Shown here: piece after piece, positions 2,782 through 51,385 of the stretch
Numbering within the stretch: the stretch's first letter is position 1
How the letters are laid out: each line of letters starts with the position of its first letter
Source of the DNA: Candidatus Levyibacteriota bacterium
GTDB lineage: Bacteria > Patescibacteriota > Microgenomatia > Levybacterales > UBA12049
Length of the DNA: 64,000 bases
Assembly (NCBI GenBank): GCA_043807135.1
Contig: JAZDGF010000001.1
Location: 4,573-68,572 of the forward strand
Reading direction: 5' to 3'
Program-made: the position numbers and the translations under genes
The notes under the pieces: model-generated
Seen by the model: the letters and a program-made list of their open reading frames with translations, nothing else
Database searches by the model: none
What the model was told of the DNA's origin: nothing

Positions 2782-4107
2782 CTATTCTAGTGCTTTTAAG
2801 ACACTATTTAAAGTCCTGTTGCTTTCTGCTGTGATTATATTCTTAAAACCAAGCTTATTAGCTTGCTTAATGCGCTTTTCAAGCATGCTTACCCCTCTTA
2901 ACTCTCCTAATAAACCTACTTCTGCAGCTCCAACCGTCTTTTTAAGCGGAACATTCTTAAGACTTGAAAAAACTGCAAGACAAATTGCAAGATCTGCTGC
3001 AGGATCTGAAAGTTTTAGACCACCTGCAACGTTTACAAAAATATCCATCGTGTCAACTGGAAGTCTGCACTGTTTTTGCAAAACTGCAAGAAGCAACTCA
3101 AGCCTTTTATAGTCAAATCCCGAAGCAACCCGTCTTGGCATAGGCAGTTTTGAAAAAACCGCCAAAGCTTGAATCTCAACCAAAAAAGCTCTTGTTCCTT
3201 CAAGAGTAACTGTAAGCACAGACCCTGAAGCATTTGCTTGAGTATCAGTTAAAAAAACTTGTTCTGGATTTTTAACCTCAATCATTCCCTCTTCCTGCAT
3301 CATAAAAATACCAACCTCGTCAACCGGTCCAAATCTGTTTTTAAGACCTCTTAATATCCTAGTGCCAGTATTTTTTTCTCCTTCCAAAAATAAAACTGCG
3401 TCTACCATGTGGGATAAAACCATTGGCCCTGCAACCATACCCTCTTTGGTAACGTGTCCTACAAGAATAATCGGAATATTAAATGCTTTTGCCATTTTTA
3501 TAAACGAAGAGGTTGCATATCTTACCTGGCCAATACTTCCTGATAATCCTCCCAATCCTTCTGACTCCATAGTTTGAATAGAATCAATAATTACCAGGTC
3601 TGGCTTTTCCTCTTCAATTGCTAAAACTACAGCATCAGTATCAGTTATTGCTAAAACCGAAAGATTATTAGCTTTGCCTTTTTTGGAAATTCTATCTGCT
3701 CTTAACTTTAGCTGCTGTTCTGATTCTTCTCCTGAGATATATAGAATTGATTTTTTTGCTTCTCCTCCTGAAAGACTTAAGGCAATTTGTAAAAGAAGTG
3801 TTGATTTACCAATTCCCGGATCTCCTGCCAAGAGAATTACGCTTCCAGGAACAATACCACCACCCAAGACTCCATCTGCTTCTATAAAATCTGTTTTAAG
3901 TCTGTCTTTTTCTTGATATTTTACATCTCCTAATTTTTTTGGAGTAATTGAACGAAGTGAAGTATTTGTTTGCTTACGTACAGATCCTACTTTAGGAGTT
4001 TTAAATTCTTTTAAGGAATTCCATTCTCCGCACTCAGGACATTTTCCAAGCCACTCTGGAGCTTCATATCCACACTCTTGGCAGACAAAAGAAATTAAAG
4101 ATCTCAT
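2782..4107 (-). CDS. radA: DNA repair protein RadA/Sms
   Basis: N-terminal zinc finger CQECGYEAPEWLGKCPECGEWNS, Walker A GDPGIGKSTLLLQ, and a Lon-like C-terminus. Confidence 0.9.
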   Translation of the reverse strand: MRSLISFVCQECGYEAPEWLGKCPECGEWNSLKEFKTPKVGSVRKQTNTSLRSITPKKLGDVKYQEKDRLKTDFIEADGVLGGGIVPGSVILLAGDPGIGKSTLLLQIALSLSGGEAKKSILYISGEESEQQLKLRADRISKKGKANNLSVLAITDTDAVVLAIEEEKPDLVIIDSIQTMESEGLGGLSGSIGQVRYATSSFIKMAKAFNIPIILVGHVTKEGMVAGPMVLSHMVDAVLFLEGEKNTGTRILRGLKNRFGPVDEVGIFMMQEEGMIEVKNPEQVFLTDTQANASGSVLTVTLEGTRAFLVEIQALAVFSKLPMPRRVASGFDYKRLELLLAVLQKQCRLPVDTMDIFVNVAGGLKLSDPAADLAICLAVFSSLKNVPLKKTVGAAEVGLLGELRGVSMLEKRIKQANKLGFKNIITAESNRTLNSVLKALE

Positions 4108-7126: not shown

Positions 7127-8041
7127 ATGAGTTTAAAGGAAGCACCTAGACAACAATATAAACCAAACACTCCAATAGAAATTTTTCAACCTGACGGAGT
7201 TATAGATAATAAGCCAGGCCCTGGAGAGTCAAACGACTCTGTGCAGGAATATTTCAATATAATAAGAAGAATTCCCCTTCTTACCCCTGAGCAAGAAGTT
7301 GATTTGGCAAAAAGAAAAGATAATGGAGATTCTTTTGCAAAAGAAAAACTTACAAACTCAAATCTAAGATTAGTTGTTTCAATTGCCAGAAAATACCACG
7401 ACGATGGCATAGATTTATCAGACTTAATTCAGGAGGGAAATTTTGGACTCATGAAAGCTGTAGAAAAATATGATTGGCGACGTGGTAATAGATTTACTAC
7501 TCATGCAACCTGGTGGATCAGACAATCTATTACAAGAGCAATAGCAGACCAGGGGAGAACAATTAGGATTCCTGTTTATATGATAGAGAACATTAACAGG
7601 TTTTTAAAATCTTCAAGAAAATTAATGCAGGAATTAGGAAGAGAACCGACTCCCGAAGAAATTGCAAAAGATCTTGGAATAAATCCTGAAAAAATACTTG
7701 AAATAGAAAGAATATACCAAAGACCTCTCAGTCTAGACGCTCCTGTTGGAGATGAAAAAGATACTGATACGAAAAATTTTATAGGAGATGGGTCTTTTGG
7801 AAATCCTTTTGATACTGTAGCGCTGACTATTAGAAGCGAAAATATAGCTAAGGCGTTAGGAGGTTTATCCGAAAGAGAAAGAGAGGTAATTGAGTTTAGA
7901 TTTGGCTTAGGCGGCAAACCTCCAAAAACTCTCGAAGAACTTGGAGAAAGATTTGGGGTAACTAGAGAAAGAATGAGGCAAGTAGAGGCAAAAGTCCTTG
8001 ATCGAATAAGCAACTCCCCAATAGCTGAAACTTTAAAATAA
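7127..8041 (+). CDS. RNA polymerase sigma-70 family factor (primary-like, short)
   Basis: Region 2 ([36 protein letters not shown]), region 3, and region 4 ([15 protein letters not shown]...[20 protein letters not shown]). Confidence 0.9.
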
Positions 8042-8058: not shown

Positions 8059-8170
8059 CTCCTGGCGATGACCTATTGTCCCAGATAAAATCCAGTATCG
8101 TCAGCGCTGATACGTTTCACTTCTCTGTTCGGAATGAGAAGAGGTGGTTCCATATCGCTCCAATCACCAG
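8059..8170 (-). rRNA. 5S rRNA
   Basis: The reverse complement contains ...CCACCTCTTCTCATTCCGAACAGAGAAGTGAAACGTATCAGCGCTGACGATACTGG..., matching the conserved 5S core. Confidence 0.75.
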
Positions 8171-8355
8171 AAAATTTCTCTTTTCAAATTGCTTTTTGAC
8201 TCCTTGCAAGCGAAGAGAAGATAATTTAAATCTACAACTTGACCATTAGTACGGGTAGGCTAAACACGTTACCATGCTTACACCGCCCGCCTATCAACCT
8301 GATAGTCTCTCAGGGGTCTTCCTTATAAATAAGATGAGATCTTATCTTGGGAACC

Positions 8356-8469: not shown

Positions 8470-9154
8470 CATTACGTTTTCTCAGATTTCTCTGAGGATC
8501 AGACTATATCTTCACCCAATCTAACTTGGGTGTTGGCGTATAATAAAAGGCTTAGATTTCGGTTTTTAGACCGATATACCTTCTATATGAGTCGTTACGG
8601 GGACTTTCAAAGAGATGTTCTCTGCGATGAATAATAATTATATTCTCGCATTTTCTTAATCCATTCTGAAACATTATATTTATTAATTATTTTCTGTTGC
8701 AATTTTGGAATAAGTTTTATTAATAAACTTGCTTGTTTTTGCTTAAGCCGTAAAAACGGCTTAAGAAGGGTTAAAACTTTTAATGTTTTTGTGAATCCTT
8801 CTATTCGAAGTTCACAAATATTATCATTTCTTGTATAAACATATCCTCCAAGTATTTTTTGCATCCATTCAATATCATTTTTATGACTATTATCTTGGTA
8901 GATGCAAATTACTGTTTTGATACGAATAGTTTTACCTTCTGCATTCTTGCGCAATTGAAGCATAATGCTTCCATCACCATCAAGAAAGCCAGCTATGTAT
9001 GCAAGTTTTTCTCTTTGAGAAAGTCTTCCCACGGTATTATCCTTTGGCACTTTATCTAAGTTTAACATAGGACTAAAATTAAACTCAAACCAAGAGGACT
9101 TCACCGTTATTAGCCAATTTCGATACTGTATTACTACAGTAAAGAGCAATTTCT
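8470..9154 (-). mobile_element. Group I intron with a LAGLIDADG HEG, inserted in the 23S sarcin-ricin loop (between CCUAGU and ACGAGAGGAC; E. coli ~U2656/A2657)
   Basis: The exon junction reconstructs CCCTAGT|ACGAGAGGAC. The intron contains the S-like core GAAGATATAGTCTGA and a single-motif LAGLIDADG ORF. Boundaries were placed by eye (5' exon ends in U, intron ends in G). Confidence 0.6.
8607..9068 (-). CDS. LAGLIDADG homing endonuclease (single-motif, I-CreI-like) encoded in a 23S intron
   Basis: LAYIAGFLDGDGSIMLQLRK motif. The ORF-track start at 9209 lies in rRNA exon sequence, so the start is taken at the internal Met at 9068. Confidence 0.7.
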   Translation of the reverse strand: MLNLDKVPKDNTVGRLSQREKLAYIAGFLDGDGSIMLQLRKNAEGKTIRIKTVICIYQDNSHKNDIEWMQKILGGYVYTRNDNICELRIEGFTKTLKVLTLLKPFLRLKQKQASLLIKLIPKLQQKIINKYNVSEWIKKMREYNYYSSQRTSL

Positions 9155-9215
9155 TACTAGGGACGAATTCCCTCAAATCTCGACGATTATGCAGGATAGA
9201 GACCGACAATTATGT

Positions 9216-9549
9216 TACTCAACAGAATAATTCTGTAGGGCGTATGTATTTCTACTACGCTCTCCGATTCGCATCGGAGTTCGGACTATATCTTCCCTTC
9301 GATAAACTCAGGGTCTAGTGTATAGTCTCTGGGGCTCTAAAAGATATTTTCTCTTAGTTGCCTGCTGATTGTCCGCACTTAAAACATTTTTACTTGTTAT
9401 AGAAATAAAATAACTCTAATGTCAAGTAGCTTAAGATGCTCGGAGTTTCCAGCATATAGCTAGATTTATTCCCGCTTTTATACGGGACCTTCAAATTTTC
9501 TCTTTACAGTTCAAAACGCTTGAAGGAAGACAGCAACGGTCATTTGCTT
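9216..9549 (-). mobile_element. ORF-less group I intron in 23S at the L2593-equivalent site (GACAGU|UCGGUC)
   Basis: Exons reconstruct CGTAAGACAGT|TCGGTCTCTATC. The 334-nt insert contains R-like CAGAGACTATACAC and S-like GAAGATATAGTCCGAAC core elements and no ORF of 60 aa or more. Confidence 0.6.
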
Positions 9550-9704: not shown

Positions 9705-10577
9705 CATGTATTTGTGCTTTTGCACATCTCCACAATTTCTTGTGGCACTGACTATATCTTCATCCGCCAAGATGGCGGAGTACGGCGTGTGATAGTTAAA
9801 TAACTATCTCACTACTTATCGCGTTATGCGATTTTCGATCAGTCGATACGGGGTCAAGAGGTAATTTATAACGCATTGATAAAATAATATATTTTCGTAT
9901 TAAACTTATCAATTTTTGCGTTTCTATGACACTAAAAATTAAAACAGATCCTTTCTTTTTCTTTTTAACTGTTGGTAAAAGATTGAAATTGTTTTTAAAC
10001 ATCTCCAGTAAATATCTTTTACTCTCTTTGTCAAAGTTTGGAATATAAAGATAGGCTATTTTATCTCTATGATAATAATATCCATCATCCATAAACCAAA
10101 CAGCTAAAGAAAGAGGATTTTTAAAGATTGTCGTTATTGTTTCTGGAATAATCTTTTGCGAATTATCGTAAAAGATGTTTCGCAATTTTCCAAAATCAGA
10201 ACTTGCTGTTGACTGAATACGAACATATTTATATGTTTTTTTCCAGATAGGATTTTTTCTTTCAAGAACTTTTATATTGCTTTGAAAATAGTTTCGTAAT
10301 TGCTCTACTTTCCATTCAAGATAATTTCTCTGAGAAATTCCTTGCTCAAGTCGTAATCTTGCATTCTGCTTACCTGTTTTTTGCAAATAAGCATCGCCTA
10401 AGATCAGACCTATCACGATATCTTTTTGTTTTCGTGTCATTTTTTCCTCCGACTTCCCACGGTATTACCCTTTGCCTCCTCGTAGTGGAAAGACTTGTAA
10501 CCACCAGACAAGAGGGCTTCACCGTTATTAGCCGTATACTTGATTCTATGTTACCATAAAATCGGGACACAGTAATG
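9705..10577 (-). mobile_element. Group I intron with a double-motif LAGLIDADG HEG in 23S at the L2449-equivalent site (GGGGAU|AACAGGCUGA)
   Basis: Exons reconstruct CCCCGGGGAT|AACAGGCTGATCGC. The S-like GAAGATATAGTCAGTGCC lies near the 3' end. It shares GGCTAATAACGGTGAAG(C/T)CCTCTTG and ATACCGTGGGAAG blocks with the intron at 8470-9154. Confidence 0.65.
9796..10440 (-). CDS. LAGLIDADG homing endonuclease (two motifs: IGLILGDAYL, AVWFMDDGYY)
   Basis: Both LAGLIDADG-type motifs are present, and the ORF lies entirely within the intron. Confidence 0.75.
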   Translation of the reverse strand: MTRKQKDIVIGLILGDAYLQKTGKQNARLRLEQGISQRNYLEWKVEQLRNYFQSNIKVLERKNPIWKKTYKYVRIQSTASSDFGKLRNIFYDNSQKIIPETITTIFKNPLSLAVWFMDDGYYYHRDKIAYLYIPNFDKESKRYLLEMFKNNFNLLPTVKKKKKGSVLIFSVIETQKLISLIRKYIILSMRYKLPLDPVSTDRKSHNAISSEIVI

Positions 10578-11032
10578 TATCCCCGGGGTAGCTTTTATCC
10601 GATAAGCTGTGTGCCTACCACTAGGCATCACAGGATCACTAACACCGACTTTCGTCCCTGCTCGACTTGTAGGTCTCGCAGTCAAGCTGGCTTATGTGTT
10701 TGCACTATCACCTTGATTTCCATCCAAGGTTAGCCAACCTTTGTACGACTCCGTTACTCTTTAGGAGTCAACTTCCCCAGTTAAACTGCCCACCAGACAC
10801 TGTTCCTTAGCCGAATTTTTTTGCGGCAATAAGGTAATGATCACTTATTTCAAAGAGAGGTATTTCACTAGCGCCTAAGCTCCCTCCTATTCTAAACAAT
10901 TAAAATAAACTTTCAAATGCCAAGCTACAGTAAAGCTCCCGGGGTCTTTTTGTCCATGCATAATTAGGCCGCGTCTTCACGGCCATCTCAATTTCGCCGG
11001 GTAGATGTTCAAGACAGTTACTCAGTCGTTCT

Positions 11033-11068
<36 letters not shown>

Positions 11069-11089
11069 CTTCGCTACCATAGAACAGTT

Positions 11090-11801
11090 CACTTTTGTTA
11101 CTTGCTCTGATTGATTACAGAGTCTCATGGTCGCCCATGAGGTCGGACTATATCATCCTCACCTTTTCAGGTGGGTTTAGCGTATAGTCTCTGAGGATTC
11201 CTTATTCGAAAATATCTTTATAGCCATATTTTCTTGTTCTTCCCTTACCTTTGTTTAATTTTTCTCTTAAGATTAAAATTCTTTTTAATCCTTTAGTATT
11301 TCTGTGTTCTCCACTTTTAACAAGCTTTGAAATATCACGAAAAATATTAAAGTTGTAAATTTTACTTTTAGAGAGTAAAGGATATTTTGTAAAATATGGA
11401 ATAATTTTATCGACTATTTCTTGAGAGCTTGTAACATCCAGAGAATGCAATCCGTCTTTTCTTACTTTAATAATTCCGCATTTCAATTCTTTTTTTAAAA
11501 CGTAAAGAATTGATGAATCTTTTTGTGAAACATTAAAGCTTAAAACAACTTGCCAATTAACTTTATAATCGCTCTTTTTACGAAGCGAAACATTAAAGCT
11601 TCCTTCTCCTTCTACAAACCCTGCAATAAAATAGCCTAAATTTTCTCGATCAAGGCCTTTCCTGCTGATTGTCTGCGCTGGACGTTTTTTCACCATATCT
11701 TTATATTAACATGGTACCGCCAGATACTTCAACCGTCTGTTTTATACAGTTGCGGTACAGATTTTCCAGCATATAGCTAAATTTTACAACTACAATTGCT
11801 T
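11090..11801 (-). mobile_element. Group I intron with a LAGLIDADG HEG in 23S helix 69 at the L1917-equivalent site (GUAACUAU|AACUG)
   Basis: Exons reconstruct GTAACTAT|AACTGTTCTATGGTAGCGAAG. The 3' core is CCTCAGAGACTATACGCTAAACCC...GAGGATGATATAGTCCGACC (R/P8/S). Confidence 0.65.
11202..11696 (-). CDS. LAGLIDADG homing endonuclease (single motif LGYFIAGFVEGEGSF)
   Basis: LAGLIDADG motif near the N-terminus, inside the L1917 intron. Confidence 0.75.
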   Translation of the reverse strand: MVKKRPAQTISRKGLDRENLGYFIAGFVEGEGSFNVSLRKKSDYKVNWQVVLSFNVSQKDSSILYVLKKELKCGIIKVRKDGLHSLDVTSSQEIVDKIIPYFTKYPLLSKSKIYNFNIFRDISKLVKSGEHRNTKGLKRILILREKLNKGKGRTRKYGYKDIFE

Positions 11802-12639
11802 ATAGTTACTGCTGCCGTTTACTGGAGCTTGTATCCTAAGCTGAACATTGCTGTCTCACTAGAGATACTTGACTTACCAGCACTGGGCAGGTGTCAGCCC
11901 CTATACTTTGCCTTTCGGCTTTGCAGGGACCTATGTTTTAGATAAACAGTCGCTAAATACACTTTTGTTGAAACCGCGTTCTTACACGCGGCAAGGCATC
12001 TCCCATAGGTTACGCCTAGCTTTTTTGCCGAGTTCCTTGAACATCTTTCTCCCGATCGCCTTAGTCTACTCGACCAGCCCACCTGTGTCGGTAATCGGTA
12101 CGGTAAAATATGAGTTTTTTCCGATAAATCGGAACCAATGAGGCTTTTCTTGGAAACTGAAACGTACTATATTGTTCCCTATTGCTAGGAAACTTTCACT
12201 CGTAGTTCAATTAAACAGATTAAGGGATTTGCCACTTATTCCTACTTTACTACTTGGACCCATCTTGCGATAGGCATAGTTTTTCCAATTCCGTTACCCC
12301 CTCAGAATACTCATATTCTGTAGTCGAATTTCAACGACTTATCCATCGAGTTACCCCCCATTATTAAGGGACACCCTTAGGACCGACTAACCCTCCGCTG
12401 ACTTACATTGCGGAGGAAACCTTGGGCATTCGGCGGTCCTGTTTCTCACAGGACTCTCGCTACTCATACCGGCATTCTCACTTCTGTCCGCTCCACAACA
12501 CTTTACAGTTGTTGCTTCACCGCAAACAGAACGCTCCCCTACCAACCTTACGGTTCTCCAGCTTCGGCAAAGAACTTAATCCTCGGTGGATTTTCGGCGC
12601 CAAGTACCAATCCTCCAGTGAGCTGTTACGCTATCTTTA

Positions 12640-12670
<31 letters not shown>

Positions 12671-13239
12671 TTGTCTCTGGAACCTGACTTCCTTCCAAAC
12701 TTAGTTCTTATTTAGAGGCCTTAGCTGGGAGTCTGGGCTGTTTCCCTTTTGACCCATCAGCTTAGCCCGAAGGGTCTGACTAGGATACAACAAGCTCTGG
12801 CATTCGGAGTTTGATTGGTTGCGAGAAATTACTTCCCCACGAACCATTCAGTGCTCTACCTCCAAAACTCTATACGTATCCCGCTATACCAAAATATATT
12901 TCGGGGAGAACCAGCTATCTCTGAGTTCGTTTGGCATATAGCCCCTAACCTCAAGTCATCTCATACCATTGCTACGGTAACGAGTTCGGGCCTCCTCCTA
13001 CATCTCTGTAGGACTCACCCTGCTCAAGGCTAGCTCACTCAGTTTCGGGTCTACTAACTGCAACTAACGACCAATTAGGTCACGCTTTCACTATGTCTCC
13101 GTTACGTTCCGTAACTTAGACTAACGCTGCAATCAATAACTCACCGGTTCATTCTTCAATAGGCACGCCATTATCCTTACGGACTCTGGCTGCTTGTTAG
13201 CCAACAATTTCAGGTCTATTTCATCCCCCTCCCGGGGTG

Positions 13240-13278
<39 letters not shown>

Positions 13279-13942
13279 AGACTTTGGTGTTTAGTCTTGG
13301 AACGTGGCCGCCCCAGCTTCCCACAGGGTTTTATCGTACCCCATGGTACTTAGGTACAAACTATCGGGGTCTTTCCTTTCATGTACGAGCCTTTCACTCT
13401 CTATGGGGGATTATTCCAAATCCTTCTATTAGAAAAAACCGCATCGAATATCGTCTGCCCTGCAACCCCCGAATAAATTCGGGTTTAGACTTTTCCGCTT
13501 TCGCTCGCCGCTACTTACGGAATCTCGTATGATTTCTTTTCCTGGTGTTACTAAGATGTTTCAGTTCACACCGTTCCCCACCAAACACTATATATATCAT
13601 TGCTGATATATTTTTATGTTTGGTTCTTGTAAAAACAAGGGGTTTCCCCATTCGGAAACCGCCGGATCATAGGTTTATGACACCTACCCGACGAGTATCG
13701 CCGCCATATGCGTCCTTCCTCGGCCAAAATCTCCTAGGCATCCATTATTGGCATTATGAGTAGATTTAAATTATGTTAATTCCGTTAAATTTTCCGTAAA
13801 CAAAAATGCTTTTGGAAAATCAAACGGAAATTCTTCTCCTCACTTGTCAAAGAGCCAAATCATTATCTTTTCGGGATAACCCCCTCTCACTAGGGGGCTT
13901 GCCCCAAAAGATAATCTTACTAGTTTTATTTAGCTTGACGAG

Positions 13943-42444: not shown

Positions 42445-42493
42445 AAAGGGATTATATCAAACTTGAAGCTAAATAGGTTTTTGGAGTTATTTG

Positions 42494-42568
42494 TACCAGG
42501 GGGGAGGATCGAACTCCCGAACCTCGGGGGTATGAATCCCGCGCTCTAACCAACTGAGCTACCCTGGC
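42494..42568 (-). tRNA. tRNA with CAU anticodon (Met-type; Met versus Ile2 versus initiator cannot be resolved by eye)
   Basis: Reverse complement GCCAGGGTAGCTCAGTTGGTTAGAGCGCGGGATTCATACCCCCGAGGTCGGGAGTTCGATCCTCCCCCCTGGTA forms a cloverleaf with loop TTCATAC. The first acceptor pair is G1-U72; no CCA is encoded. Confidence 0.8.
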
Positions 42569-43242
42569 ATATTTATCTTCAAACCCTCAATAAGTCCAAT
42601 AATTTTATGATAAAGGAGACCTGGCTTTCTAACTCTGATCCTAATTGTACCATAATGATTGTTGAAATTCTCATAAACCTTTTTGTTTTCAGTTTTTTTA
42701 AAACTAGTCTTTGTAAACTGATTTTCTTTAACTCTTAACGTTTTTAACCAATATTTTTTAACTACCTGCTCTCTTTTTCTATGGCTTTCATTAATTCCTA
42801 TGCTACATATTAAGTTATTAGAATTAATTCCGAAACATATTTTGAGCCAATGTGCAAAGAATTTTACCATTTCTGGATCTGAATTACAAAAAGAAAATTC
42901 ATTACTTTTTTTACTGCCTTCTCCCCAATAAATGCCTAGGCCGCTGACAAGAAATTCTCGTTTAGTAAAATTTTTTAACGATTTAATTCCAGATTTCTTG
43001 TTTTCAGCTATTAATTTTAATCTTTTTTCTTTTTGCAGAAAAGCACTCCTTAATCTTCCTAATTCTGCACCTTTTATTGAAGACTTTCGTAATTTTTCTA
43101 GTTGCTGCACACTTAAAATAATATCCCTTACCCAAATACTTGCAGTGCCTTTAGAAATGCTCAATTTTTTTGCAATTTTATTCACACTTATACCCCTTTT
43201 GCGAAGTCTCCGAGCCTCAATTTTTAATTTAAATTTAGCCAT
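42559..43242 (-). CDS. Free-standing HTH + LAGLIDADG-like protein (paralog of 50681-51385), 3' end overlapping the tRNA 5' end
   Basis: N-terminal HTH (RLRKRGISVNKIAKKLSISKGTASIWVRD). Central LVSGLGIYWGEGSK followed by NSDPEMVKFFAHWLKICFGI, reminiscent of a single LAGLIDADG motif and the following helix. Confidence 0.55.
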   Translation of the reverse strand: MAKFKLKIEARRLRKRGISVNKIAKKLSISKGTASIWVRDIILSVQQLEKLRKSSIKGAELGRLRSAFLQKEKRLKLIAENKKSGIKSLKNFTKREFLVSGLGIYWGEGSKKSNEFSFCNSDPEMVKFFAHWLKICFGINSNNLICSIGINESHRKREQVVKKYWLKTLRVKENQFTKTSFKKTENKKVYENFNNHYGTIRIRVRKPGLLYHKIIGLIEGLKINMPG

Positions 43243-43307
43243 AAAAAGAACTAACGAATAATCTAAGTACTTCTACTATACTGTAGGTTCTTATTATTTG
43301 TCAATAA

Positions 43308-43336
43308 TTGACTCAGGCTTAGTCAAATGCTATAAT
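43308..43336 (+). promoter_or_regulatory. Consensus sigma-70 promoter (TTGACT-17-TATAAT) driving the ncRNA below
   Basis: TTGACT at 43308-43313, TATAAT at 43331-43336. Confidence 0.55.
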
Positions 43337-43342
43337 ATTATC

Positions 43343-43626
43343 CACGCGCGGGGTAGTGTACAGTGCACATGAGGCTCAATATGGGCCCCTTTGCTAGTAA
43401 TGGCAAAAGAGAATTCGGCTGTATCGGTGAAATCCTAACAATATTTAAGTATTGAAGGACAACACCGAGGGAACCTACTTGTTAAGTGGGACACCGTAGA
43501 GACTAAACGCCGAACCCCTTTCATAAGGGTGATGATATAGTCCGACACTCTAAGTAATTAGAGAAACAGATTGCATAATCTCATAGGCTAGGCGCAACTC
43601 CTAGCCCCGCAACACAGGTTTTTTAA
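43343..43626 (+). ncRNA. Promoter-driven ~285-nt RNA with a group I intron catalytic core, not embedded in a recognisable host gene
   Basis: R-like GTAGAGACTAAACG, P8-like hairpin CCCCTTTCATAAGGG, S-like GATGATATAGTCCGAC and P9-like CTCTAAGTAATTAGAG. It is near-identical in order and sequence to the 3' core of the 23S L1917 intron. A 3' hairpin GGCTAGG...CCTAGCC is followed by CCGCAACACAGGTTTTTT. Confidence 0.5.
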
Positions 43627-43641
43627 CCTCAAGAATACTTC

Positions 43642-44212: not shown

Positions 44213-44277
44213 AAGAATTAGATTCTATCATCGTCTATTCCACGTAGCACAAGTAGCATGTTAAATAAATATTTTAA

Positions 44278-44367
44278 CCTAAATCCGGTATAAATACTGG
44301 CGTGATCTGGAGAAGGAAGAAGGTGTGTATTTCTTCCAGTCCCCGCAACATCGGTTTTTTAGCCTCA
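44278..44367 (+). repeat. Inter-cassette repeat copy R1 (~90 nt)
   Basis: CCTAAATCCGGTATAAATACTGGCGTGATCTGGAGAAGGAAGAAGGTGTGTATTTCTTCCAGTCCCCGCAACATCGGTTTTTTAGCCTCA. Confidence 0.8.
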
Positions 44368-44377
44368 ATTTGACATT

Positions 44378-44392: not shown

Positions 44393-45217
44393 ATGAGAAT
44401 TGCCTCATATAACATATTAAGTGGCGGTTTTAGTTCTTATAACTATGAAGCTTCATCACCCGAAAGAATTAAATTGCTTCAAAAAGCAATCAAAATCATT
44501 AATGCCGATTTTATTGGGCTAATTGATACTTTCAGGTGGGATACTTTATACAGCAATACTCAACTAGCTCAACTCTTTGGTTACAAAAAGGCATACTGCA
44601 TTAACCTAAATGATAGTCGTTTAAGAAAAAAAGGGCATAACAACGGGATAACCGTATTGACCAACATACCAATTAAACACTTTGAAACAATTAGTTTAAA
44701 AACAAGAGACGCTATTAAAACAACTCTTCAAATAAATAATAATAAATTAGACATATTTACGGTTTATTTGGATGATCTAAGCGAAGATGTCAGGGTTAAG
44801 CAAGCACAGATATTATTACAACATGTTAATCAAAAAAAACCAACAATTATAATTGGCGATTTAAATACGCTAAGCCCAAGTGAGATAACAAAAGTAACCC
44901 CGTTAATTAATAAGCTTTTCGTTAGATATCCGCAGCTATCGGAGAGCTTAATACCCGTTTTAGAGGAAATGAAGCGTGGTGAGGTAATTAAGATGCTTGA
45001 AGAAAACAGATTTCAAGACGCAAATAGAGCATGCACCCCAACCGTACCTAGTAAATTATTTCCAATAAAAACAGAACGTGCATTTCTAAGATTGGATTAT
45101 GCTTTCCATACAAAAAATATTCAGATTTCTAATTTCAGCGTGCCGAGAGACTCTATTTTTGATCAGACATCTGATCATTATCCGATAATTTTTGAAGCTA
45201 GCGTAAATCAGGAATAA
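44393..45217 (+). CDS. Endonuclease/exonuclease/phosphatase (EEP) family protein
   Basis: ASYNIL, IIGDLN and SDHYPI motifs typical of the DNase I-like EEP fold. Confidence 0.75.
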   Translation: MRIASYNILSGGFSSYNYEASSPERIKLLQKAIKIINADFIGLIDTFRWDTLYSNTQLAQLFGYKKAYCINLNDSRLRKKGHNNGITVLTNIPIKHFETISLKTRDAIKTTLQINNNKLDIFTVYLDDLSEDVRVKQAQILLQHVNQKKPTIIIGDLNTLSPSEITKVTPLINKLFVRYPQLSESLIPVLEEMKRGEVIKMLEENRFQDANRACTPTVPSKLFPIKTERAFLRLDYAFHTKNIQISNFSVPRDSIFDQTSDHYPIIFEASVNQE

Positions 45218-45291
45218 ACACTGGCGTGGTTTGGGAGAGAAAATAGGTGCGTATTTCTTCCAATCCCCGCAACATCGGTTTTTTAGCCTCA
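45203..45291 (+). repeat. Inter-cassette repeat copy R2 (5' end overlaps the EEP gene stop; hairpin degenerate)
   Basis: GTAAATCAGGAATAAACACTGGCGTGGTTTGGGAGAGAAAATAGGTGCGTATTTCTTCCAATCCCCGCAACATCGGTTTTTTAGCCTCA. Confidence 0.75.
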
Positions 45292-45326
45292 GTTTTTCAG
45301 AACTAAGTAGGGTAATTTGCACCTTC

Positions 45327-45341: not shown

Positions 45342-45815
45342 ATGTCCCCTGAACGACGCAGTTTAAAAAGAACTGATATAGAAGGTATTCTTCCTCATAG
45401 AAGACCTTTCATGTTTTTAGAAAGTGCTGAAATTGTTGAACCGGGCGTTAAAGCAATTGGTGTTCTTGCAGATTTATCACATCCAGATTTTGCTTTCCTT
45501 AAAGGTCATTTTCCTTCATTTCCTATAGTCCCAGGGGCAATTCTCATGGAAACGCTCGCAGAGCTTTCGGGTATAGCAGTTAGCTCTAGAGCCTCAGGAC
45601 AACATAATAAAATTGGTGTTTTGAGAAGAGATGCTATGGATTATAAGCAAATGGTGAAGCCTGGCGATTTGGTGCAGTTAGAGGCAGAGGTTTTTGCATT
45701 AAAGATGGGTATTGGAAGAAGCCGAGTAAAAGCGATTAAAGATGGAAAAACCGTAGTGGAAGGAGAAATAGTTTTTGCACTAATTGACAAACCCGAAACT
45801 CAACTCTTATCCTAA
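45342..45815 (+). CDS. FabZ/FabA-like hotdog-fold dehydratase
   Basis: ILPHRRPFMFLE...GHFPSFPIVPGAILMETLAELSG matches the FabZ active-site region. The ORF-track start at 45231 lies inside repeat R2, so the Met at 45342 is preferred. Confidence 0.65.
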   Translation: MSPERRSLKRTDIEGILPHRRPFMFLESAEIVEPGVKAIGVLADLSHPDFAFLKGHFPSFPIVPGAILMETLAELSGIAVSSRASGQHNKIGVLRRDAMDYKQMVKPGDLVQLEAEVFALKMGIGRSRVKAIKDGKTVVEGEIVFALIDKPETQLLS

Positions 45816-45897
45816 ATCTGGTATAAATACAGGCGTAGTTTGGGAGAGGAAGAAAGTGCGTATTTCCTCCAACCTCCGCAACATTGCAATTTAGGTT
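45811..45897 (+). repeat. Inter-cassette repeat copy R3 (supplies the FabZ-like stop codon; terminal inverted repeat CCTAAAT...ATTTAGG)
   Basis: CCTAAATCTGGTATAAATACAGGCGTAGTTTGGGAGAGGAAGAAAGTGCGTATTTCCTCCAACCTCCGCAACATTGCAATTTAGG. Confidence 0.8.
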
Positions 45898-45947
45898 GAT
45901 ATAACAAGTTAAACTAAAACCCGAACTCCCCTGATGATACAAATCTA

Positions 45948-46539: not shown

Positions 46540-46611
46540 TACTAATGGTATTTGAGGCTAAATCCCAAGCCTCTCTTATAGGCGATGTTGGAACAACTGC
46601 TTGGATTTTAT

Positions 46612-46701
46612 TCTAAATCAGGTATAAATACAGGTGTGGTTTGGGAGAGGAAAAAGGTGCGTATTTCTTCCAATCCCCGCAACACAAGTCTTTTAGCCTC
46701 A
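46612..46701 (+). repeat. Inter-cassette repeat copy R4
   Basis: TCTAAATCAGGTATAAATACAGGTGTGGTTTGGGAGAGGAAAAAGGTGCGTATTTCTTCCAATCCCCGCAACACAAGTCTTTTAGCCTCA. Confidence 0.8.
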
Positions 46702-46812
46702 AAATAGGTTCTATAACATCATCTATCCCTCGGAACTCAGGATTTCATTTGGAGATGTCTAGTACTGGGTATTGTCTATGTAGTTTTCAAAGCACCCGTT
46801 AAGGTGACTGAC

Positions 46813-49050: not shown

Positions 49051-49151
49051 AAGTGTATCTAAAATCATTTAACTAAAGCGCCTCACATATTAAATTTGAG
49101 CGTAAAAAGTTCCCACATAATCAACTAGAGCCAGAAGAATTGATAAGCTAG

Positions 49152-49227
49152 CCTAAATCTGGTATAAATATAGGCGTTGTTTGGGCAAGGAAGAATGTGC
49201 GTATTTCTTCCAACCCCCGCAACACAA
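49152..49227 (+). repeat. Inter-cassette repeat copy R5 (tail replaced by hairpin ATCGCTC-CAAAA-GAGCGAT + T-run)
   Basis: GCCTAAATCTGGTATAAATATAGGCGTTGTTTGGGCAAGGAAGAATGTGCGTATTTCTTCCAACCCCCGCAACAC. Confidence 0.75.
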
Positions 49228-49251
49228 ATAATCGCTCCAAAAGAGCGATTT

Positions 49252-50581: not shown

Positions 50582-50594
50582 AGTAGATTCCAGG

Positions 50595-50668
50595 TGGGTC
50601 AGGATGGATTCGAACCATCGAACTTCCATTTTATAAGAATGGCACTCTAACCACTGAGTTACTGACCC
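50595..50668 (-). tRNA. tRNA-Ile with UAU anticodon
   Basis: Reverse complement GGGTCAGTAACTCAGTGGTTAGAGTGCCATTCTTATAAAATGGAAGTTCGATGGTTCGAATCCATCCTGACCCA. Anticodon stem CCATT/AATGG, loop CTTATAA; the variable loop appears to be 6 nt. Confidence 0.7.
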
Positions 50669-50680
50669 AATTCGTGACAA

Positions 50681-51385
50681 TTATACCATGACTTCAAGTC
50701 TTTCTGCATAATAATTAGAGATAGCTTTTATTGTCATCATAATTTTTTCTTTTATCAGAATATTGCTTACTAATAAACCGCATGTTCCATGACCAAATCC
50801 CTTGTGATCTATCTTAACTCTCGTGCTTTGTTTAATATAAGGCTTTGCAAACTGCGACAGTGGAAGCTTTAATACTTTACTCCAATACTTCATTTCTTTT
50901 TTAATATCCATATCCTTATATAGCTGTAAGGTAACTTTTATTCTCTTTTTAGGAATTTCTAATGCATTTACCATCCAACATAAAGTGAACGTAAGCATTT
51001 CAGGATCTGTATTGTTAACAACAATTGGACCATTCATTCGCTTTGTTCCTTCTCCCCAATATAAAAATATTCCAGCTAGTTCAAGTTCTTTTTTGCTTAG
51101 AGATGACCAACGCTCTTTTTCTCTTTTATATGTTACATTTATTCTGCTTTCACGTTTTTTTTGTTTTGTAATCCTAATTTTCTCTATACTTAAAAACTTA
51201 TTTTTCTTTCTCGTCTTTTCAAGCTGAATTATTTGCTTTGTAGTTAGAGGAAGTTTTGCAATCCAGTCAGAAAGTGTACTTTTTGAAACATTTATTTCCC
51301 GTCTAATTTCACTATAAGTTTTACCTTGTTTTCTTAATCTTATCGCTTTTGCTCTATCGTTTAACCTTGCCATAAAACGAACCAT
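50681..51385 (-). CDS. Free-standing HTH + LAGLIDADG-like protein (paralog of 42559-43242), immediately 5' of tRNA-Ile
   Basis: N-terminal HTH (IRLRKQGKTYSEIRREINVSKSTLSDWI); LAGIFLYWGEGTK followed by NTDPEMLTFTLCWMVNALEI. Confidence 0.55.
   Translation of the reverse strand: MVRFMARLNDRAKAIRLRKQGKTYSEIRREINVSKSTLSDWIAKLPLTTKQIIQLEKTRKKNKFLSIEKIRITKQKKRESRINVTYKREKERWSSLSKKELELAGIFLYWGEGTKRMNGPIVVNNTDPEMLTFTLCWMVNALEIPKKRIKVTLQLYKDMDIKKEMKYWSKVLKLPLSQFAKPYIKQSTRVKIDHKGFGHGTCGLLVSNILIKEKIMMTIKAISNYYAERLEVMV

Follow-up and report, generated by a model that had tools for sequence, protein, structure and literature searches.

Two genes in the 64-kb stretch of DNA analysed here (the window; GC content about 33%, nearest database proteins from Levybacteria/Levyibacteriota), ORF A and ORF B (ORF, open reading frame), belong to a large protein family encoded beside tRNA genes, and this family is best read as a group of free-standing homing-endonuclease-like genes specialised on tRNA genes. 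We give this reading, in which the proteins would act as nucleases, a probability of about 0.55. A homing-endonuclease-like nature had already been proposed in the original prediction, made from the letters of the window alone, and it is the best-supported interpretation, carried by the patchy site-specific presence of the genes, by the discordance between A and its flanking genes and by the occurrence of relatives in viral tRNA arrays. New are the protein family and its architecture, the chromosomal scale, the pairing of one paralog with one tRNA and the combination of strong constraint with apparent site-specific replacement. No description of this family was found in the literature, and a 2026 survey of tRNA introns in Patescibacteria makes no mention of a neighbouring ORF.

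ORF A (42559-43242, minus strand, 227 residues in the ORF list) is followed on the same strand by a tRNA(CAU) gene (42493-42568 according to ARAGORN, 42494-42568 according to Rfam). The two overlap by 10 nt, the TAG stop codon of ORF A forming nucleotides 8-10 of the tRNA. This tRNA is probably the elongator tRNA-Met; we presume elongator Met rather than tRNA-Ile2, as it has a G1.U72 pair and the same genomes also encode tRNA-Ile(UAU). ORF B, of A-like architecture and also on the minus strand, spans 50681-51385 (234 residues) if read from the first ATG, but its true start is probably at 51373 (50681-51373, 230 residues), since a 100%-identical database protein (P0121) has 230 residues. The tRNA-Ile(UAU) gene (50593-50668, minus strand), found by both ARAGORN and Rfam, begins 12 nt past ORF B. 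With 27% identity (E=1e-22) the two proteins are paralogs. On these grounds the prediction of two related proteins of about 230 residues, each encoded directly 5' of a co-oriented tRNA gene and the first overlapping its tRNA by 10 nt, is confirmed.

The association with tRNA genes holds far outside the window. Among 80 reference-genome loci with 85 ORF copies, a same-strand tRNA(CAU) gene adjoins 57 of the 82 assessable A-type copies at distances of -39 to +37 nt, and 21 of these 57 lie at exactly -10 nt, an overlap identical to that in the window. For the B-type, 80 metagenome loci were collected with a B-only profile, and tRNA-Ile(UAU) is found within 77 nt of 74 of the 76 copies with room to judge. 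Such adjacency is far beyond chance, and the tie whose survey in related genomes had been proposed is kept across hundreds of them. A further 24 copies have no downstream tRNA and lie about 100 nt from an initiator tRNA-fMet gene (recognised by its 1x72 mismatch), which a group I intron interrupts and which is usually located on the opposite strand. The tRNA-fMet genes at these copies were found by Rfam and intron-tolerant ARAGORN, and the full count was taken with an nhmmer profile, as a regular-expression detector and the gathering mode of Rfam under-detected the intron; nhmmer and the E-value mode of Rfam corrected this. The intron-containing tRNA-fMet is present at 43 of the 80 loci (38 divergent, five co-oriented) and an intronless one 64-150 nt upstream at about 18 more, which places tRNA-fMet beside the ORF start at at least 61 of the 80 loci. 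Several Parcubacteria tRNA-Met genes have no adjacent family copy. Three Parcubacteria loci (L020, L030 and L068 in our numbering) hold two copies each, one abutting tRNA-Met and the other divergent from an intron-containing tRNA-fMet, and a third paralog group linked to tRNA-fMet is suggested.

Relatives were also found in viral contigs of IMG/VR (11-527 kb, local GC content 22-63%), where 36 proteins with 25-37% identity were collected. Thirty-three of them are encoded within 200 nt of tRNA genes, which comprise 16 isotypes; 10 of the 36 are encoded on the strand opposite to their nearest tRNA neighbours, and one viral contig carries two family copies. A search of cultured phages (tblastn against INPHARED) gave no relatives. 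Because the viral relatives flank 16 isotypes, because tRNAs in these arrays can lie on the opposite strand and because tRNA-fMet occurs in either orientation, the family is tied to tRNA genes as DNA sites and not to Met/Ile decoding or co-transcription. A link to decoding of AUG and AUA codons had been entertained and was rejected on account of the 16 isotypes. One contig (L200, IMGVR_UViG_3300018080_004888) contains a partial family ORF and, immediately after it at 3410-3683, a tRNA(CAU) gene with a group I intron of the kind described (nhmmer E=1e-41); it is either a phage with the whole module or a misclassified fragment of a Patescibacteria genome.

How large is this family, and what do its proteins look like? 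Word-indexed searches retrieved 261 relatives for ORF A and 788 for ORF B, nearly all of 224-240 residues, and every named relative was from Patescibacteria. An exhaustive profile search over 1.84 billion cluster representatives (clusters at 50% identity) yielded 7805 matches at E<=1e-3, 4235 at E<=1e-10 and 1017 at E<=1e-30. Family copies are uniformly about 225-235 residues long and align across almost the entire query, and extra domains suspected in longer members turned out to be additional HTH (helix-turn-helix) modules only. Source annotations of relatives read either "hypothetical" or "helix-turn-helix domain-containing". Overlaps of -21 to -39 nt between ORF and tRNA are common in the family, and its members are therefore likely to be under-annotated. 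At locus L086 the A-type ORF (9910-10659, 249 residues) runs through the whole downstream tRNA-Met with no earlier in-frame stop, and it was missed entirely by the gene caller of the source.

The N-terminal domain is an HTH of the transposase/resolvase type, as had been predicted. HTH_23 of Pfam (cutoff 24.6 bits) matches ORF B above the cutoff (30.9 bits) and ORF A below it (22 bits), and 64 of 67 family members match this model at E<=1 (best E=7e-10). Searching PDB sequences with the family profile returned HTH proteins only, namely the Sleeping Beauty PAI subdomain and resolvase HTH domains, and searches with NCBIfam likewise gave HTH only. According to the alignment and the structural model, ORF A consists of the HTH (residues 2-38), a long helix of 44 residues (45-88) and a C-terminal alpha/beta domain (94-224). 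The latter contains the motif GLGIYWGEGSK...NSDPEM, and the block G-x3-YW-x-EG-x-K ... N-x-D-P that had drawn attention in the window is real and the most conserved part of the family; together with two Trp, one Phe and a G-T it makes up the strongest conservation, and Glu108 is invariant in alignments of 42, 67 and 82 sequences. The matches among PHROGs were weak: the C-terminal domain was hit by phrog_6640 (E=0.005), and residues 6-206 of the family member P0336 by phrog_3 (E=1e-6), whose annotation is "transcriptional repressor". PADLOC gave no match to a defence system.

Does the C-terminal domain belong to the LAGLIDADG proteins, as was proposed from the motif? All sequence-profile searches answer in the negative, the outcome that had been named beforehand as refuting the proposal, and the relationship is weakly favoured by recurrent sub-significant matches to homing-endonuclease folds and by the invariant Glu. 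The Pfam models LAGLIDADG_1, LAGLIDADG_2, LAGLIDADG_3 and those of WhiA match neither ORF A nor ORF B; LAGLIDADG and WhiA are not among the top Pfam families matched by the 67 members, and ten isolated C-terminal domains did not match these models even at E<=10. No LAGLIDADG structure was found by the family profile among PDB sequences, and no Pfam or NCBIfam model matched the C-terminal domain. Direct profile comparison with hhalign aligned the motif helices of the family and of a LAGLIDADG ORF in the window (8607-9209; E=0.066, not significant), and with a shallow LAGLIDADG_1 profile of 35 sequences it aligned the beta2-alpha2 region (E=0.041, not significant), pairing F-x-F-x-N-S-D-P-x-M-I of the family with F-N-V-S-Q-K-D-x-x-I-L. 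These matches are in the right register but below significance.

The full-length model (predicted local distance difference test, pLDDT, of 88) shows the HTH, the 44-residue helix and the alpha/beta domain, and the C-terminal domain modelled alone reaches a pLDDT of 94.8 and a predicted TM-score (pTM) of 0.86. Its elements are predicted in the order helix, strand, helix, strand, helix, strand, strand, helix, with the motif helix (94-108) terminating at E108-G109; the core of LAGLIDADG enzymes is alpha-beta-beta-alpha-beta-beta-alpha. The motif helix resembles that of enzymes such as I-CreI and I-DmoI, in which the helix motif G-x-x-x-x-x-(D/E)-G likewise places an acidic residue before a Gly and is followed by a strand and a helix with the pattern x-D-x-x-hydrophobic. 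In a Foldseek search of the PDB, I-DmoI gave the only tight superposition on the predicted model (43 columns, root mean square deviation (rmsd) 1.5 A, 26% identity, probability 0.98), and over the whole domain 126 columns aligned with a TM-score of 0.42. Against the viral models of BFVD, the top match was a homing endonuclease (E=0.05, probability 0.96, TM-score 0.40), and the other high-probability matches were mostly intein-type: a terminase of 1161 residues, a DNA polymerase of 1474 residues, an RNR/intein protein and a Hint-domain protein. Unlike the known LAGLIDADG enzymes, the family lacks a profile match, its whole-domain TM-score is about 0.4, only a short loop remains of its first beta hairpin, and it has a helix-strand insert of about 45 residues (YW..L..P..QF) in addition to the N-terminal HTH and the long helix. 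We consider it fairly likely that the scaffold of the C-terminal domain is LAGLIDADG-like, though distantly so, the first hairpin being reduced and this conserved insert added. GIY-YIG, PD-(D/E)xK and Toprim nucleases and the Tyr-His-Lys triad of tRNA-splicing endonucleases were dropped by eye as the secondary structure or the order and conservation of residues did not fit.

The history of ORF A appears to differ from that of its surroundings. In Levybacteria the gene order is DUF8128 - B - tRNA-Ile(UAU) - [variable] - Xer - DivIC - [variable] - tRNA-fMet / A - tRNA-Met - MurD - TGT. Between the window and locus L081, A is 83% identical with a ratio of nonsynonymous to synonymous substitution rates (dN/dS) of about 0.1, MurD is 65% and TGT 72.5% identical, and every flanking gene exceeds A in synonymous divergence (0.66-0.73 against 0.54 +/- 0.04). 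A is functional and under purifying selection. From the 83% identity and the low dN/dS, A was at first read as a simple vertically inherited housekeeping gene, and this was rejected on the discordance between A and its flanks. Four Levybacteria are equidistant from each other by DUF8128 (79-83%), Xer (84-89%) and MurD (65-66%), and A is not: in contrast to the 83% between the window and L081, it is only 54% identical between the window and L086 and 52% between L081 and L086, with MurD at 66% in both pairs. Conversely, L001 and L009 share 83% identity in MurD and 48% in A. Over the 21 pairs of the seven genomes that share the order A - tRNA-Met - MurD, the identities of A and MurD are uncorrelated (rho=-0.28). 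A thus seems, judging from these comparisons, to move or to be replaced at a fixed site; presence/absence variation of A was not seen in Microgenomates. B is sporadic. A family member is located upstream of tRNA-Ile(UAU) at six loci (L006, L055, L071, L084-86), and at ten (L008, L009, L012, L037, L044, L076, L078, L081-83) it is absent there, with no remnant detected at E<=10. The slot of B between DUF8128 and tRNA-Ile(UAU) is occupied by a bAvd/23S_rRNA_IVP-like four-helix-bundle gene in L081 (5999-6367), L082 and L083; in L084 such a gene lies elsewhere in the neighbourhood (7367-7738), behaving like a small mobile ORF.

On its other side ORF A faces a second tRNA gene. The initiator-type tRNA-fMet (C1xA72; 43347-43613, plus strand) is interrupted within its anticodon loop by a 197-nt group I intron that contains no ORF, and its exons (43347-43376 and 43574-43613, placed by the U/...G/ rule, slashes marking the splice points) fold when joined as an initiator-type tRNA(CAU). 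Rfam in E-value mode places Intron_gpI at 43367-43564 on the plus strand with 78.9 bits. A CA repeat at both junctions leaves the insertion point ambiguous by sequence between positions 33/34 and 35/36; the rule gives 33/34, and Met(CAU) introns at 33/34 have been reported in two Patescibacteria genomes (PMC13011429). Because of the group I intron inside it, neither ARAGORN at default settings nor an Rfam scan of the whole window in gathering mode reported the gene, and by default scans the genome would appear to be without its initiator tRNA here. The "ribozyme-like RNA" that had been noticed in this segment is this intron. ORF A and tRNA-fMet are 105 nt apart and divergent, with back-to-back near-consensus promoters: a predicted sigma-70-type promoter of ORF A (43275-43304, minus strand; TTGACA-18-TATAGT, 11 of 12 consensus positions), kept among the Microgenomates loci, and one predicted for tRNA-fMet (43308-43336, plus strand; TTGACT-17-TATAAT, 11 of 12, with a TG), ending 10 nt before the 5' end of the tRNA. 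No conserved palindromic operator is evident in this intergenic region beyond the promoter elements, and no terminator-like site was found between ORF A or ORF B and its tRNA.

Loci L081, L082 and L083 encode an identical A protein, and the tRNA-fMet intron (about 200 nt) is found in L081 only. Its presence at L081 9663-9857 versus the empty sites at about 5965 in L082 and about 5821 in L083 is a precise presence/absence polymorphism. Of 12 substitutions in the surrounding 11 kb, five, together with one indel, fall within 60 nt of the intron boundaries, a cluster that looks like a co-conversion tract left by recent gain or loss of the intron at the DNA level. The same three relatives, which are without the island described below, carry a small GIY-YIG ORF of 85-96 residues 3' of tRNA-fMet (L081 9219-9509, L082 5522-5812, L083 5378-5635, all on the minus strand), a second candidate nuclease at this locus. 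The idea that A cuts intronless tRNA-fMet genes on behalf of the intron, that is, collaborative homing, was weakened by the roughly 18 intronless loci and by the identical A found with both alleles.

How could such genes work? The N-terminal HTH would anchor the protein on DNA at or beside the tRNA gene, and the long helix would serve as a linker that provides reach and possibly dimerisation. The C-terminal domain, whether a LAGLIDADG-type domain that has diverged far or a new fold in which the first helix-strand-helix of such a domain is imitated, would cleave DNA, with the invariant Glu at the end of the motif helix serving metal-dependent cleavage. If a tRNA locus without the gene, or with another allele of it, were broken in this way, the break could be repaired from an occupied locus, whereby the gene and short flanks would be copied. 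Homing of this kind would explain why one paralog accompanies one tRNA, why B is patchy, why different A lineages sit in the same slot and why the intron is polymorphic. In addition, the promoter of ORF A probably transcribes tRNA-Met as well, because there is no terminator and the two genes overlap by 10 nt. If ORF A supplies transcription of tRNA-Met, its precise loss would be costly, which would help retention. Furthermore, a cut by RNase P at the 5' end of the tRNA would remove the stop codon of A and could couple expression of A to tRNA processing.

Several observations weigh against a homing endonuclease. The protein is as well or better conserved than its housekeeping neighbours between the window and L081, and no degenerate A-type copy is present in the sample; classical homing genes often decay once fixed. 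A co-occurs with an intronless tRNA-fMet at the roughly 18 loci mentioned, L082 and L083 included, so that the site where the intron inserts is probably not cut by A, and because of this co-occurrence and of the GIY-YIG ORF flanking the tRNA in L081-83 the intron polymorphism is not attributable to A. The discordance of A with its flanks rests on pairwise identities in seven genomes rather than on trees and could be mimicked by differential loss of ancient paralogs, two copies per locus being present in L020, L030 and L068. B is equidistant among three Levybacteria (73-76%), which fits vertical descent with losses. Some of the "viral" DNA, in contigs of 300-500 kb, may be cellular and misclassified. 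As to the protein itself, searches of Pfam, NCBIfam and PDB sequences place it in no nuclease family, fold searches of the PDB and of the viral models gave nothing at E<=1e-3, and the lowest E-values in the PDB belong to OmpA-like and IspF folds, albeit with rmsd values of 6-12 A, so these look like matches of topology only. Moreover, the domain has a conserved helix and strand in excess, inserted after the third core strand and before the fourth.

Could the proteins instead be domesticated, non-cleaving DNA-binding regulators comparable to WhiA, derived from homing endonucleases and binding the control region that the genes share, with A setting the expression of the initiator and elongator Met tRNAs and B that of tRNA-Ile(UAU)? 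The strong purifying selection, the intact copies and a conservation at least equal to that of housekeeping genes are what would be expected of a regulator, the HTH is the best-supported domain of the family, and the divergent back-to-back promoters of A and tRNA-fMet, kept on the side of A among Microgenomates, form a classic regulator-target layout. The match of phrog_3 over most of a family member points in the same direction, and WhiA provides a precedent for regulators that combine LAGLIDADG and HTH domains and act, among others, on translation-related genes in a reduced genome (PMC3240954, PMC11701221). On the other hand, a regulator of these tRNAs should not be dispensable, as B is at many tRNA-Ile(UAU) loci, nor should its alleles be discordant with their flanks as those of A are. 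The role also fits poorly with the viral relatives, which accompany 16 isotypes, are antisense to the neighbouring tRNAs in a quarter of cases and can occur more than once per contig, and with the missing palindromic operator. WhiA and maturases have usually lost the acidic residue of the motif, and in this family the Glu is invariant. A regulator is therefore conceivable and rather unlikely.

An action on RNA is less probable still. Here a vertically inherited host protein would act on tRNAs or introns, as a trans-acting group I maturase or as a helper in tRNA processing or modification, its gene would sit in the tRNA operon so that both are expressed together, and the discordance would reflect hidden paralogy. 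Maturase activity is known among LAGLIDADG proteins, other bacteria have genes that are transcribed together with tRNAs (tufB, the metY-nusA-infB operon), and at most bacterial loci the downstream tRNA is co-oriented and overlapping or abutting. The adjacent tRNA-fMet has an ORF-less group I intron at 43 of the 80 loci, and the two copies per locus in some Parcubacteria make differential loss of paralogs possible. However, the family is equally present beside intronless tRNAs, antisense placement is common in viral arrays, tRNA-fMet usually lies on the opposite strand, the N-terminal domain is an HTH of the DNA-binding type, and B is missing from many genomes with tRNA-Ile(UAU). The pair L001/L009, with 83% identity in MurD and 48% in A, would in addition require very recent reciprocal loss of paralogs. 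It had also been proposed that the two modules, each a gene with its tRNA, are the nicking or targeting component of a cassette system located between them. The island in question (43.6-49.25 kb) does lie between the modules in the window, and the segment beside A differs among relatives, but the proposal is very improbable. A-tRNA-Met and B-tRNA-Ile occur without the island in hundreds of genomes and in viral contigs, close relatives with the same Xer-DivIC hold only one to a few unrelated genes in the slot, tRNA-Ile, Xer and DivIC stand between B and the island, and the island repeats copy the 3' end of tRNA-fMet, which suggests that a recombinase, and not these ORFs, made insertions at a tRNA gene.

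Returning to homing genes specialised on tRNA loci, known systems offer partial parallels. The arrangement had been called non-standard for mobile elements; this does not hold, as segB of phage T4 is an active free-standing endonuclease gene between tRNA-Arg and tRNA-Ile (PMC2988022), thus a precedent for an endonuclease gene in a tRNA cluster. As PMC2988022 relates from Brok-Volchanskaya 2008, SegB is a GIY-YIG enzyme that targets the tRNA intergenic region. Promoters embedded in T4 endonuclease genes have been argued to favour retention of the genes (PMC2988022). Like segB, the family members are free-standing in spacers between tRNA genes, appear to be inherited preferentially with flanking tRNA DNA and have embedded or adjacent promoters, with the activity itself being presumed for the family. 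Unlike SegB, they have a LAGLIDADG-like or novel domain with an N-terminal HTH, and in contrast to this phage gene they are found mostly in Patescibacteria chromosomes, long-lived and strongly constrained. Collaborative or trans homing is known from T4 mobE with the I-TevIII intron (PMC2790892) and from cyanophage F-CphI with the psbA intron (PMC6083498). There, as here with the polymorphic tRNA-fMet intron about 100 nt from ORF A, a free-standing gene lies beside a group I intron that is ORF-less or whose own ORF is defunct, but A occurs at the roughly 18 intronless tRNA-fMet loci, so the intron site is probably not the target and a link between A and intron mobility is circumstantial.

The domain layout has parallels as well. 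I-TevI consists of a nuclease domain, a linker and an HTH; the family similarly joins a small putative catalytic domain through a long linker to an HTH, in reversed order and with another catalytic family. WhiA (PMC3240954, PMC3384342, PMC11701221) shares with the family a homing-endonuclease-type scaffold combined with an HTH, is kept in reduced genomes and exemplifies domestication. It differs in having two LAGLIDADG domains and a C-terminal HTH, versus one domain and an N-terminal HTH in the family; the models WhiA_N, LAGLIDADG_WhiA and HTH_WhiA are not matched by the family, whose acidic residue is invariant, and WhiA is neither tRNA-linked, patchy nor discordant with its flanks.

If the family indeed consists of homing genes for tRNA loci, it would be a large addition to the mobile endonucleases, with at least 1000 clusters at 50% identity, and the T4-type arrangement of an endonuclease gene in a tRNA cluster would be widespread in Patescibacteria chromosomes and large viral contigs. 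This would account for tight constraint on the protein alongside a history unlike that of its immediate neighbours, and it would help to explain the variability of the tRNA-fMet, tRNA-Met and tRNA-Ile(UAU) loci in reduced genomes. For engineering, small putative nucleases that are tethered to an HTH and would have long conserved targets may be worth considering as scaffolds. A more far-reaching version, which we regard as unlikely, takes the family for an unrecognised class of homing endonucleases, with a new catalytic fold or as an extreme LAGLIDADG derivative, that targets tRNA genes in conflicts over translation. Copies in the arrays of large phages would cut tRNA loci of the host or of competitors and force inheritance of the phages' own arrays, and Patescibacteria would retain copies at the single-copy tRNA-fMet, tRNA-Met and tRNA-Ile(UAU) genes since occupancy immunises the site and supplies a promoter. 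In that case tRNA loci would be hotspots of gene exchange between Patescibacteria and their phages.

The segment between the two modules has an origin of its own. The 8-kb segment that they had been said to delimit does lie between them, but they do not delimit it functionally: the island is anchored on tRNA-fMet and extends from the 3' end of this gene (43613) to the last of its repeats (49245), about 5.6 kb. The content between the modules proved variable as anticipated, and the modules occur without the island. In the window the island fills the slot between DivIC and A, where L081 has the small GIY-YIG ORF, L086 a gene for a hydrolase and L084 several genes. The genes of the recombinase Xer and of DivIC are part of the conserved synteny (identities of 84-89% and 53-62%, respectively). 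With the same Xer and DivIC and without the island, L081 and L086 keep A-tRNA-Met, and L084 and L086 keep B-tRNA-Ile. Within the island, five repeats of 97 nt (44275-44371, 45199-45295, 45808-45904, 46609-46705 and 49149-49245) separate gene cassettes that encode two toxin-antitoxin-like pairs, an EEP-like nuclease, a hotdog-fold protein and SPFH-Fur-ZIP. Each repeat contains a copy of about 35 nt of the tRNA-fMet acceptor 3' strand and trailer, preceded by a 7-bp hairpin, and thereby resembles a tRNA minihelix; the ancestral copy of the repeated segment is the 3' end of tRNA-fMet itself (43599-43632). Because the repeats share these 35 nt with the 3' end and trailer, the island looks inserted at the tRNA-fMet gene, and the repeat pattern suggests either serial insertions at this end or tRNA-like punctuation of transcripts.

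Genuine LAGLIDADG_1 genes are present in putative rRNA introns of the same genome. Three ORFs with LAGLIDADG motifs lie in the rRNA region of the window, all on the minus strand (8607-9209, 9796-10440 and 11202-11696), and the last of them, inside the 23S gene, is a confirmed member of PF00961. The match to 23S rRNA (10541-13766, minus strand) spans 3226 nt compared with 2925 nt of the model, and the 5S rRNA (8060-8171, minus strand) is 2.3 kb away from the called end of the 23S gene, with two of the LAGLIDADG-motif ORFs in between. The nhmmer profile of the tRNA intron gives weak matches at 9267-9436 and 11133-11206, suggesting that group I introns are located there.

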